A program made the position numbers and the translations under genes. 64,000 nucleotides of DNA, from the NCBI RefSeq assembly GCF_000738915.1, contig NW_026515638.1, forward strand, positions 84,882 to 148,881, in the 5' to 3' direction. The notes beneath the pieces are model-generated. The model was not told the DNA's origin, ran no database searches, and worked only from the letters and a program-made list of their open reading frames with translations. This DNA comes from Nematocida ausubeli. Its lineage: Eukaryota. How positions within the stretch are numbered: the first letter of the stretch is position 1; the number at the start of each line of letters is the position of its first letter. Positions 12,252 through 23,134 of the stretch are shown piece after piece.

Positions 12252-12524
12252 GTGGATTAAGTCTTGTAAGTTTTAGGAAGAAGTGGATTAAATTGTGGTA
12301 AAGTGGATTAAGTCTTGTCGGGTTGTTATGAAATAAGATCAAATTGTATATAAGGTGGATTAAGTCTTGTAATTTATTCGGACAAAACTTATGGCAGGTG
12401 GATTAAGTCTTGCACATCCCATAATAAAGTGTATTAAGTCTTGTCAAGTTTATAAAAAGCGGATTAAGTCTTGACAAAGTGGAAAAAGTCCTGACATTTT
12501 CTTAATAAGGCGGATTAAGTCTTG
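12252..12524 (+). repeat. Array 1 of the 15-bp motif GTGGATTAAGTCTTG (9 copies, forward)
   Basis: Copies start at 12252, 12283, 12303, 12355, 12398, 12429, 12459, 12479 and 12510. Confidence 0.95.
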
Positions 12525-12671
12525 GATAACCCGAGCCCCTTGATATACCATATCCCATTGTATAATAAAAAAGCCATCTACTTACATATCCCATACGGAA
12601 CCAATATAGACCACTCTCACACCCAGAGACATAAGAATTTAATACTCTCGGGTTATTTATTTTTTATTCCC

Positions 12672-14981
12672 ATGCATAGTAAGTGCATTGCCGTAATAGG
12701 CGGATATAAAGCAGGCAAGACATCTGTCCTAAAGAACCTTTGCATAAATCACACAGAAGACTTAACCAAGCACGGTTTCGGAACAATTCTTCATAAAAAA
12801 GAAACACTTTCCGGTCTCTTGGAATTTGTCGAATTTTCCATCCCCCCAGACACTCCATTCCCATACGATCTAAAAATATTTGATGCAATCTTCTTAGTCA
12901 TAGATATATGCGCATATGAAATAGATGAGATAATTAAGATAACCCGATATAACCCGAGGTCACCCATTATCATACTATTAAACAAAGTTGATGCGATATT
13001 TAAATACGGCACAAAGAGAGCAACAAGAATATGCAAAGAAATAATGCAGGAGATTGAAGAAGTAATAGGTAATGGGAATAAATCAAAACCCGATATAACC
13101 CGAAATAACCTGTTTCAGCCCGATATAACCCGATATAACCCGAATAACCCGAATATAATATTTTGCATTGGAAGTTCATTTGGCTTCGGGATATTCTGTG
13201 GGAATGTCTGGGAATGGAAGGAAAAAGAGAAAAATATTCAGGAAATAATTGAAAATATACAGAAGGTAATGGAATATACAGAGATGCACTCCAGTGACAG
13301 AAAGAGACTATTCCGGAAATTAGGATATTCGGGTTATATTTCTAACGGAAAAATTAAAAATATAAAAAAAATTAGTGAGATATGCGTAAATGCTGTGGGA
13401 ATATTATCTTTACAGAAAATTTTGATCGAAGTTTTCTTAAAGGTCGAAACCCGATATAACCCGAGGTATCAAGAAGAGGAGATGGGAATAGGTGGGAGTA
13501 AATATATGGGGAGAGTATGGGATAATACTGGATTGGGTGAAATTTGGCAGGATAAGACTATGGAAAGTACGGGTTATTCAGCAAAAACCAACAAAAAACT
13601 GAAAAAAACAGAAACCCGATATAACCCGAGGTACCATAAAGAAGCAACAAGAGACAGTGAAAATGGACTAAACCCTCACATACACCTTCAGAACCACATA
13701 TATTCAACCAGACCCAGTGAGACCACTGAAACTAACCATCTTGACAATAATTTATTAAAAACCAAAAATATCCAGAATTCCTGTAGTGCAACGGTAATAG
13801 AGGTGCTTAAATCAGAAGGACCAGATAGAATAACCGTTCTATTAAAGGTGCACAATAAAAATATCACAAATATACGTTATAAAGGCATATTATTTAATAT
13901 AATTAAATATAACGGAAATATAACAGAAATTAACCGTATATATATACTAGATATATACGTAGACAAAGAATCGTATGGTTTAATCATAAAATTATATTTT
14001 GACCTTCGGGTTAAATCGGGTTATCTCCCAGGAATATCTGTTACTTTCAAGGGGGTACCACAGGAGATGAAAACAAAAATTATTGAAAAAATATTTGGAC
14101 ATTTTTCCGTTAGAATTAATTGGGAAAATAACGGTGAAAAATATTTTAACTTAAGAATATCTGCTTTAGGGCCAATATCCCTTCAGAATTTAATGAAAGA
14201 CGTGCATATGTTAATGAGTTCGCATAATTTGCAATTCGAGATTATTACGCCCATTTACAATAGGAGATTGACTGTAAAAGAAAAAATGAGTTTTTTATTA
14301 CCCGTCGGGGGCGACGAGCTTAGGATAGAAGTGGACTCAAACCTTATTTATCAAGGAATGCACAGGAGGATTGAGATTTGCAAGGAAAATAAAATTTTTA
14401 TTTTAGTTCCAGAGAATATTGCAGTGGAAAATCCTGAATTAATTGGGATATTTTCGAGTATCGTAAAGGATTTCCATGAGAATGTGGGTGAGGATAGGAA
14501 GATTGCGTGTATATCCTTTTTTATATCTGAAATTCGCATTAAATCTGGCCATCTCGGGTTATATCGGGTTTTGATGCAAGAATCCATCAGGATATTCAGA
14601 TCTTGGATGTCACGATTAGTTTATAGTCAAATTGAGTGCCATATTCAAATGGAGATAGTGTTCCTGTTGAAAATGAACTGTCCCCTTCCCTCAAATGACA
14701 CTTTCATCCAAAAAATAGCCCATTTTAGTACAAAATCAGTCATAAAACGGATAATAAAAAAGCATAACGGTGTTTCATTTGGGGTCAGGATGCTGCATGC
14801 AGGTTCCCATGGCAAGGTGACCTGTATTCTGCCCATCTCAGAATATACTGAATTTATGTCCACATTTAAAATATTCTTCAGTGAATTTACGGCCTACACA
14901 ATAGGCAGTGATTACAACGCGAATTCAACAGCAGAAAGAAGCGACACAATTAGTGAAGGGTTATTCTGGAAAAATAAATAG
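12672..14981 (+). CDS. Highly diverged EF-2-family GTPase (Snu114- or Efl1/Ria1-like)
   Basis: G1 GGYKAGKTS and G4 NKVD. Domain III-like ISALGPISLQNLMKDV...ITPIYNRRLTV. Domain V-like IKRIIKKHNG...VTCILPISEYTEF. ATG at 12672 follows CCC. Confidence 0.55.
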   Translation: MHSKCIAVIGGYKAGKTSVLKNLCINHTEDLTKHGFGTILHKKETLSGLLEFVEFSIPPDTPFPYDLKIFDAIFLVIDICAYEIDEIIKITRYNPRSPIIILLNKVDAIFKYGTKRATRICKEIMQEIEEVIGNGNKSKPDITRNNLFQPDITRYNPNNPNIIFCIGSSFGFGIFCGNVWEWKEKEKNIQEIIENIQKVMEYTEMHSSDRKRLFRKLGYSGYISNGKIKNIKKISEICVNAVGILSLQKILIEVFLKVETRYNPRYQEEEMGIGGSKYMGRVWDNTGLGEIWQDKTMESTGYSAKTNKKLKKTETRYNPRYHKEATRDSENGLNPHIHLQNHIYSTRPSETTETNHLDNNLLKTKNIQNSCSATVIEVLKSEGPDRITVLLKVHNKNITNIRYKGILFNIIKYNGNITEINRIYILDIYVDKESYGLIIKLYFDLRVKSGYLPGISVTFKGVPQEMKTKIIEKIFGHFSVRINWENNGEKYFNLRISALGPISLQNLMKDVHMLMSSHNLQFEIITPIYNRRLTVKEKMSFLLPVGGDELRIEVDSNLIYQGMHRRIEICKENKIFILVPENIAVENPELIGIFSSIVKDFHENVGEDRKIACISFFISEIRIKSGHLGLYRVLMQESIRIFRSWMSRLVYSQIECHIQMEIVFLLKMNCPLPSNDTFIQKIAHFSTKSVIKRIIKKHNGVSFGVRMLHAGSHGKVTCILPISEYTEFMSTFKIFFSEFTAYTIGSDYNANSTAERSDTISEGLFWKNK

Positions 14982-15371
14982 TGGATTAAGTCTTGTCAGT
15001 TTTCGGGAGAGGTGGATTAAGTCTTGTCAAGTTTAGGAAGAAGTGGATTAAGTCTTGTCATCTTTGGAAGGGAGTATAAAAAGTCTTGTCAAATTTATAA
15101 AAAGTGGAAAAAGTCTTGTCATTGTGGATTGAGTTTTGTCAAATATTATGCCATAAGTCTTGTCATTGTGGAAAAAGTCCCGATAAAGTGGATTAAGTCT
15201 TACACTGGGCGGAAAAAGTCTTGCACTAAGTGGAATAAGTTGTGATCTTTTAATATATGGAATAAGTCTTGCCATTGTGCCATAAGTATTGTCATTGTGG
15301 ATTAAGTCCTGGCACTGCGTAGTAAGTTCTGACAAAGTGGATTAAGTCTTGTCACTGTGGATTAAGTCCTG
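14981..15371 (+). repeat. Array 2 of GTGGATTAAGTCTTG (about 17 copies, forward)
   Basis: Starts at 14981, 15012, 15043, 15074, 15104, 15124, 15148, 15168, 15188, 15209, 15230, 15257, 15277, 15297, 15317, 15337 and 15357. Confidence 0.95.
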
Positions 15372-15411
15372 GCACGCCTTATATATAATTTTCCATGAAA
15401 ATTTTTTAAAA

Positions 15412-22724: not shown

Positions 22725-22779
22725 TATATTTATATTATATATGGGAATATATGGGAATAAAGGATATTTATGATTATAC

Positions 22780-22972
22780 TCTGTTGTATTTGTGACTAAT
22801 AATAGTAATACTGTTGTATTTGTGACTAATATTAGGATTGTATGTTGTAATTAGTATATTGCTAAGAGTATACTGTTATAATTAGTAATATACTGTTGTA
22901 TTTAGTCACACTCTGTTATAATTAGTATATTCCCAGTGTATTTAGTCATATCCTGTTATATTTATGACTAAA
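22780..22972 (-). repeat. Array of motif B, reverse
   Basis: Repeated ctgttgtatttgtgactaat and ctgttataattagt. Confidence 0.85.
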
Positions 22973-23014
22973 TCAGGGCATATAAGGGGTATACTGGGCT
23001 AATTTCTGGGTATT

Positions 23015-23134
23015 CAAGACTTAATCCACCTCTCTCTAAAACTGACAAGACTTAATCCACCTGCCATAAGTTCTGTCCAAATATTTGACAAGACTTAATC
23101 CGCCTTAGTCTAAAATTGACAAGACTTAATCCAC
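23015..23134 (-). repeat. Array 5 of GTGGATTAAGTCTTG (4 copies, reverse)
   Basis: Starts at 23015, 23046, 23089 and 23120. Confidence 0.95.

Follow-up and report, generated by a model that had tools for sequence, protein, structure and literature searches.

In a 64-kb stretch of the genome of the microsporidian Nematocida ausubeli (contig NW_026515638.1 of assembly GCF_000738915.1, positions 84,882 to 148,881; hereafter the window, with coordinates counted from its first base), five arrays of a 15-bp motif, motif A (GTGGATTAAGTCTTG), lie between the genes of an AT-rich island of about 16 kb. The island is a real and apparently undescribed chromosomal element of putative function. Judged from its sequence, it may be the motif-marked, gene-containing centromere region of this chromosome, a reading to which we give slightly less than even credence. 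The features that speak for a centromere are rarity on the scale of chromosomes, a 10-bp phase common to three motifs, low GC content, inward polarity of the arrays, an array (array 3) without a promoter beside it, and fast turnover.

Motif A forms five polar arrays with helical spacing

Motif A is present in 51 copies between positions 12252 and 23134 (~10.9 kb), in arrays of 9, 17, 11, 10, and 4 copies (arrays 1 to 5; Table 1), at the places where a first-pass annotation of the window had reported about 50. Three or fewer mismatches are found in 43 copies, 17 of them perfect; the other 8, with four or five mismatches, were counted because of their in-register position. At up to three mismatches the whole window yields 46 matches, compared with 2.62 ± 1.76 expected from 100 shuffles. 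Only 3 of these matches fall outside the arrays, no more than chance would give; the annotation had not seen the motif elsewhere in the window. Parts of arrays 1 to 4 are also covered, with few differences, by contigs from two further isolates, and these arrays are therefore not an assembly artifact.

The start-to-start spacings given by the annotation, including the 24- and 27-bp gaps of array 2, were recovered. The 46 spacings are 20 (18 times), 21 (2), 24 (1), 27 (1), 30 (6), 31 (13), 32 (2), 43 (2), and 52 bp (1), and 42 of them lie no more than 1.6 bp from a multiple of 10.3 bp, where uniform spacing would place 32%. The reported spacing at whole helical turns therefore stands, with two refinements: the pooled period is 10.2 bp, which is closer to that of nucleosomal than of free DNA, and array 2 as a whole is poorly phased (R of 0.33 at 10.3 bp; best R, 0.56). 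Array 3 has an R of 0.95 at 10.1 bp and of 0.14 at 10.5 bp, and runs of 20-bp steps fit 10.0 to 10.2 bp per turn, not 10.5. Because of this fit, recognition of nucleosome-wrapped DNA is favored over cooperative binding to free DNA, the other explanation that had been offered for binding sites kept on one face of the helix. A further feature, which the annotation lacked, is the orientation of the arrays: 1 and 2 are on the plus strand and 3 to 5 on the minus strand, with the flip between arrays 2 and 3, and all point toward 15.4 to 16.6 kb.

The linkers between copies fall into classes of 5 (18 cases), 15 (6), 16 (13), and 28 bp (2), and both 28-bp linkers contain an inverted degenerate copy of motif A, at which arrays 1 and 5 have 27 identical bases of their 43-bp units in common. 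In the 31-bp class, pairwise identity is 0.93 for the core versus 0.54 for the linker. The 16-bp linkers reach an identity of 0.54, versus 0.29 expected from composition, and the 15-bp linkers, at 0.84, are above their own cores (0.77). Linker identity is 0.58 within arrays versus 0.54 between them; the order of the 20-, 30/31-, and 43-bp units is different in every array, while identical stretches of 19 to 31 bases are common to different arrays. The better-kept cores, the equal likeness of linkers within and between arrays, and the array-specific unit order indicate that units were exchanged among arrays and then diverged. They also agree with the earlier conclusion that slippage of one unit fails to account for the arrays, at least if recent. 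The annotation had further described varied linkers at quantized lengths; the lengths are as described, and the linkers are homologous within length classes, hence not independent.

The right half of motif A is the best-kept part, with AAGT in 47 of 51 copies versus GGATTA in 31. A homeodomain protein had been named as a candidate binder on account of TAATCC, the K50 homeodomain site; with GGATTA broken in 20 copies next to a nearly constant AAGT, it is not favored. Clusters of homeodomain- or Myb-type transcription factor sites that regulate the neighboring genes would agree with the placement of four of the five arrays upstream of a gene, with the TATA-like TTTATAAAAA in which all six 15-bp linkers terminate, and with the largest array, which starts at the final base of the upstream stop codon and ends 40 bp ahead of the ATG of that gene which, among the island genes looked up, has the highest expression. 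Regulation of this kind is nevertheless improbable: array 3 has a gene end on either side, in a spacer without an annotated gene start, no arrays occur at the window's other genes, the neighboring genes have no evident common function, GGATTA is often broken, and a further motif (motif C, below) lies within genes.

The 10-bp periodicity extends over an AT-rich island

The limits of the island were set after inspection of the data, and its P values are therefore post hoc. GC content is 0.317 within it versus ~0.377 on both sides, and GC content at third codon positions (GC3) is 0.318 in its 9 genes versus 0.381 in 28 genes outside (P = 0.02, post hoc); AT richness with a GC3 trough is a common, although not strictly defining, feature of centromeres. 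With motif A excluded, the best period fell between 9.85 and 10.45 bp in 8 of 10 island segments versus 0 of 8 segments outside, where two were near misses (best periods of 9.6 and 9.75 bp). The phasing that had been ascribed to motif A is thus a property of the whole island.

Two other motifs take part in it. Motif B (GACTAAWTAYAACAG) has 46 of its 48 matches between ~8 and 24 kb, at steps mostly near 20, 30, 40, and 50 bp. Motif C (CCCGATATAACCCG) is a 10-bp unit that also occurs within genes, with 15 matches in 9,366 bp of island coding sequence versus none in 35,757 bp outside. These coding copies occupy all three frames and both strands, and a synonymous-recoding null gave a mean of 0.77 and a maximum of 3 matches. 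In two unrelated proteins motif C encodes the peptide TRYNP, which is retained in 11 of 12 isolate sequences examined. Outside the island, three tandem copies of motif C are found at 47990 to 48023 and one more at 45774. Its reverse strand contains the telomere-type hexamer GGGTTA, and motif C could be telomere-related. TAGTA-rich tracts flank the island (7339 to 7760 and 26795 to 27732), each upstream of a minus-strand gene and without a clear 10-bp periodicity.

A neutral origin of these repeats has to be weighed at this point. On this account, which we consider unlikely, the region recombines little, and gene conversion together with slippage would have copied a few unit types (20, 30/31, and 43 bp) among neighboring spacers; the 10n lengths would arise from a mutational or weak nucleosome-related bias, and motif A would have no specific binder. 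Linkers that are homologous within length classes, the exact 19- to 31-base stretches in common between arrays, spacer lengths that vary between strains, the frequency of minisatellite spacers in Nematocida, and the lack of motif A in the relative L001 would all be expected under neutral turnover. Neutral turnover accounts less readily for the difference between core and linker identity in the 31-bp class, for three different motifs with the same 10-bp step inside the island only, and for the enrichment of motif C in coding sequence, a setting that should work against neutral spread.

Array-like sequence elsewhere in the genome

Assembled contigs of the two other isolates (runs X4 and X8) were matched at 80% likeness to positions 9000 to 19900, with array 5 outside this range. 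On the array parts of five bins, contig depth, which is not itself copy number, was 3.8 to 8.4 times (X4) and 5.7 to 10.8 times (X8) the coding baseline. Simulation of the present locus alone gave 1.0 to 1.1 times, irrespective of heterozygosity, and 2, 6, and 12 extra clusters gave 3.4 to 6.2, 7.6 to 16.8, and 14 to 35 times, respectively. The depth shows that further array-like sequence exists elsewhere in the genome, and its level of ~4 to 11 times suggests ~2 to 8 clusters beyond this locus, few per genome and near the chromosome number, although the assumed divergence, a matching rule in the simulation that differs from the one behind the measured depth, and host contigs in the runs make this estimate rough, and it assigns no cluster to a place. 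One cluster per 64 kb would imply about 70 genome-wide. N. parisii has 7 long-read contigs (PMC13745600), and we infer, tentatively, about one cluster per chromosome.

Several contigs continue from array 2 into unlike sequence. Tandem motif C (13087 to 13158, and near 9778) attracts very deep contigs, with bin means of 9261 (X4) and 289 (X8) versus 15 to 20, so that the unit may represent a high-copy satellite, either the parasite's or the host's.

Rarity, polarity, and phasing would also suit another chromosome-scale element with a sequence-specific reader, such as a dominant replication origin, a polar fork barrier, a cohesin/condensin loading site, or a meiotic pairing center. Plasmid iterons and Epstein-Barr virus oriP typically consist of helically spaced direct repeats, and Caenorhabditis elegans pairing centers of clustered short motifs; the arrays resemble these in having direct repeats of protein-binding size at whole helical turns in one locus. 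We think such an element rather unlikely. No feature specific to these elements was found in the island, array 2 had no match among plasmids, and a two-copy motif A pattern had none in metagenome, viral, and prokaryote collections; a centromere fits the AT-rich, low-GC3, fast-changing island at least equally well.

The island in other strains and relatives

In the reference strain, the island is internal (215 to 227 kb of a 733-kb scaffold), and five of its spacers differ by +55, −21, −328, +65, and +214 bp, differences for which assembly gaps are not excluded; the −21 bp corresponds to one unit. Of the coding sequences flanking the variable spacers, up to position 18952, four out of five are equal in length and one is off by 1 bp. 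Between isolates, proteins of island genes differ by ~1 to 3.5% and most PFK copies by 0.1 to 0.7%, a difference inseparable from constraint.

The distant relative L001 (DBP10 56% identical) keeps the order of the 232-amino-acid (aa) gene, the Ctr9-like gene, DBP10, HMG, PFK, and XRN, and is rearranged beside the site of array 4. Its partly syntenic 22 kb lack 10-bp periodicity and contain no match to motif A (0.67 expected). A 670-aa open reading frame (ORF; 7455 to 9467 of L001) with YD/RHS-like repeats by eye, which is not in the window, separates the Ctr9-like gene of L001 from DBP10, and a stretch of ~20 bp, possibly the remnant of a small mobile element, is found three times in L001 spacers (near 2170, near 9730, and beyond 20000). 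In N. parisii, the spacers of the syntenic interval are wide (median of 677 versus 267 bp) and yet rank 11th among six-gap windows. Motif A 10-mers had no match in the N. parisii sequence cells of PMC13745600, a weak negative from 400-letter cells covering few loci. According to the same source, loss-of-heterozygosity tracts on both sides begin near one point, at ~100 kb, of N. parisii long-read contig 3, a hotspot that may be a candidate centromere site of that chromosome. A link between this hotspot and the syntenic interval was sought through the gene-length pattern of contig 3 (531/870/327, 2220, and 1320 bp), which was not found on scaffold NW_013524648.1 in the ranges covered (both strands of 318 to 650 kb, and the minus strand of 0 to 318 kb).

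A recent end-to-end chromosome fusion, which would make the island a telomere-fusion relic, is ruled out by the synteny of TBP and DBP10. Of 8 other Nematocida taxa, 7 have these genes within 10 to 19 accession numbers of each other (128 in N. displodere), and all 8 have them on contigs of equal length; the TBP protein cluster spans the genus.

The island as a candidate centromere

If the island is a centromere, a sequence-specific protein would read motif A on nucleosome-wrapped DNA. Selection would keep the core and the 10n unit lengths, giving all sites a common orientation on nucleosomes, and units would spread between arrays by copying, through unequal exchange or gene conversion. Once bound, this protein might recruit CENP-A nucleosomes or position them, in a manner similar to CENP-B at the CENP-B box. 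Given the compact genome, the centromere element would share room with active genes.

Repeats with 10-bp periodicity have been described at CENP-A centromeres (PMC5844345, PMC8997354). With systems such as the alpha satellite and its CENP-B box, Drosophila Prodsat, and rice CentO (PMC8997354, PMC5844345), the island has in common a conserved 15- to 17-bp box within more variable repeats, a ~10-bp periodicity suited to rotational phasing, and fast turnover between species; the periodicity is seen both in the pooled motif A spacings and in the segments from which motif A was excluded. Unlike these long gene-free tandems, its 51 boxes form arrays of 0.1 to 0.4 kb between active genes. Schizosaccharomyces pombe, with its imr repeats, and Candida tropicalis have short regional centromeres with inverted repeats. 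The island is loosely like them in its AT-rich center, inward-pointing repeats, and size of 10 to 16 kb. It is unlike them in that its arms do not form collinear inverted copies, in that the flip coincides with a highly expressed gene, and in that its only tRNA gene is 3 kb outside. With the point centromeres of budding yeasts (Saccharomycetaceae) it has sequence-defined sites and a local GC3 drop in common; many copies over 11 kb take the place of the single short multi-part element of ~125 bp.

No microsporidian centromere is confirmed in the literature that we found (PMC10158259, PMC12449221, PMC13174016). Blocks rich in long terminal repeat (LTR) and long interspersed elements and methylated have been proposed, unconfirmed, for Microsporidia sp. 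MB (PMC13174016), and subtelomeric epigenetic centromeres, not pinpointed and without a point-centromere candidate, for Encephalitozoon (PMC10158259); PMC12449221 reports no microsporidian centromere found by GC content or repeats. Like ours, the two proposals come from this phylum and were made without CENP-A mapping. The N. ausubeli island differs from both in being AT-rich, internal, motif-marked, and devoid of retroelement domains. The string "centromer" is absent from the main texts of bioRxiv 10.1101/2025.05.12.652816 and PMC10393165. In the literature searched, which did not include subscription papers, neither a prior description of the arrays nor any of four motif strings was found.

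Several observations weigh against a centromere. The arrays are five short mosaics, not a long head-to-tail array of one monomer, and the island has no gene-free, transcription-poor core of several kilobases: no stretch without genes exceeds 1,072 bp, a length that spacers outside the island match, and at 10 h of infection each of the six island genes looked up is expressed, at 16 to 1116 fragments per kilobase per million (FPKM; PMC9762603, supplement). Retroelement domains, in which regional centromeres can be rich, were found in 0 of 37 window ORFs. Periodicity of 10 bp also occurs in noncentromeric satellites (PMC5844345). As the linkers are copies of few unit types in a few homologous length classes, the 46 spacings amount to about five independent choices. 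The inward polarity has a probability of 0.125 for five randomly oriented arrays, and arrays on the two sides are not collinear, as inverted repeats would be. The broken homeodomain core, the rough depth estimate, and the absence of motif A from L001, which can also be taken as a sign of fast turnover, count in the same direction. So do the data from N. parisii, where the syntenic spacers are unexceptional, there is no sign of a conserved island position, and each contig has several loci with AT-rich minisatellite spacers; on this last account motif B may be ordinary. For other microsporidia, subtelomeric, epigenetic, holocentric, or LTR-rich centromeres have been suggested (PMC13174016, PMC10158259, PMC12449221).

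A more specific proposal, a sequence-defined Nematocida centromere in which polar, nucleosome-phased arrays of a 15-bp box lie among active housekeeping genes, once per chromosome, with a companion 10-bp motif within genes, is possible but doubtful. The island provides a concrete motif and locus for the centromere question in a genus that is cultured in C. elegans. If the centromere reading is true, no other microsporidian centromere would have been linked to a sequence motif before; as a centromere among expressed genes that shapes their coding sequence, it would extend the known centromere architectures. Even otherwise, it is unusual for a DNA motif to override protein sequence across a domain of 16 kb.

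Genes in and beside the island

The array-containing spacers separate single-copy genes (Table 1). Of 10 window proteins looked up in a protein collection, nine were present, eight of them in N. ausubeli clusters and the ninth, TBP, in its genus-wide one. For the 769-aa protein, homologue searches returned only itself or its own cluster, and its structure model (pLDDT, 29) gave no usable match in an Atlas search; Tsr1/Bms1, considered as its identity, is unsupported, as is Erd2 or TPT for the 232-aa protein. No relative of the 769-aa protein was detected in other Nematocida, although a gene pair in the syntenic interval of N. parisii (NEPG_01504/5; 2375 bp) is similar in length to its gene. 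The 899-aa protein is likely Ctr9 of the Paf1 complex according to fold comparisons, whose matches are mostly Ctr9 (ranks 1, 3, 4, 6, and 7; E values of 5e-5 to 1e-3; TM score of ~0.3), and it has low-complexity insertions that are missing from 9 orthologues.

Table 1. Features of the island and its right flank (window coordinates)
Feature	Position	Strand	Remarks
Island	7760-23732		~16 kb; ~10-bp repeat periodicity, lower GC
Motif B, three copies	8660-8714	-	20-bp steps; near left edge of island
Motif C (CCCGATATAACCCG)	8861-18971		25 of 29 matches in this range; 15 within coding sequence
387-aa protein, NERG_01180 cluster	11036-12199	-	No Pfam family; expressed; carries motif B and C copies
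Array 1 (motif A)	12252-12524	+	9 copies; between divergent genes
Inverted degenerate motif A copy	12383-12397	-	In 43-bp unit of array 1; following copy opposes it head to head
769-aa protein, NERG_01181 cluster	12672-14981	+	Weak N-terminal GTPase-like P-loop match; expressed; 9 motif C copies
Array 2 (motif A)	14981-15371	+	17 copies; largest array
Orientation-flip interval	15372-16595		One 153-aa gene and a 722-bp tract with 27% GC (15874-16595)
153-aa basic protein, NERG_01183 cluster	15412-15873	+	Highest FPKM of six island genes looked up
Motif B tract	15874-16461	+	15 copies; period ~10 bp
Array 3 (motif A)	16596-16874	-	11 copies; between two convergent gene ends
217-aa protein, NERG_01184 cluster	16923-17576	-	Expressed; 5 motif C copies
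Motif B copies	17763-17908	-	Adjoin array 4
Array 4 (motif A)	17963-18212	-	10 copies; between divergent genes
232-aa probable membrane protein, NERG_01185	18254-18952	+	NERG_01185 assigned by order and length; orthologue in L001
Motif B tract	19081-19903	+	16 copies; in longest island spacer (1072 bp, 26% GC)
899-aa TPR protein, likely Ctr9 (Paf1 complex)	20025-22724	+	Fold matches; GC3 0.22
Motif B tract	22842-22927	-	Adjoins array 5
Array 5 (motif A)	23015-23134	-	4 copies
Inverted degenerate motif A copy	23061-23075	+	In 43-bp unit of array 5; same as that of array 1
Helicase-HMG "sex-related" locus	23733-26794		DBP10 and HMG gene; right of island
tRNA-Arg(ACG)	26154-26226		Between DBP10 and HMG; sole Rfam match in window

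The helicase-HMG locus starts 0.6 kb from array 5 and would be centromere-linked if the island is a centromere. Its HMG gene is the candidate mating-type gene of Cuomo et al. (PMC3514677), which raises the question of whether the island results from degeneration of a nonrecombining region linked to this locus, 0.6 to 3 kb to the right of array 5. The low GC3 and insertions of the Ctr9-like gene would agree with such degeneration, but it is very improbable, given that more arrays exist elsewhere in the genome, that the HMG alleles of the reference strain have no amino acid difference (PMC3514677), that Encephalitozoon is without idiomorphs (PMC2866331), and that the link of the cluster to sex is disputed (PMC3056290). 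The HMG gene encodes two boxes and has an FPKM of 3,700 to 5,500; its product is more like an abundant chromatin protein.

As for a known noncoding RNA in the arrays, the tRNA is all that Rfam matched in the window, and at the equivalent place N. parisii has a tRNA-numbered gene.

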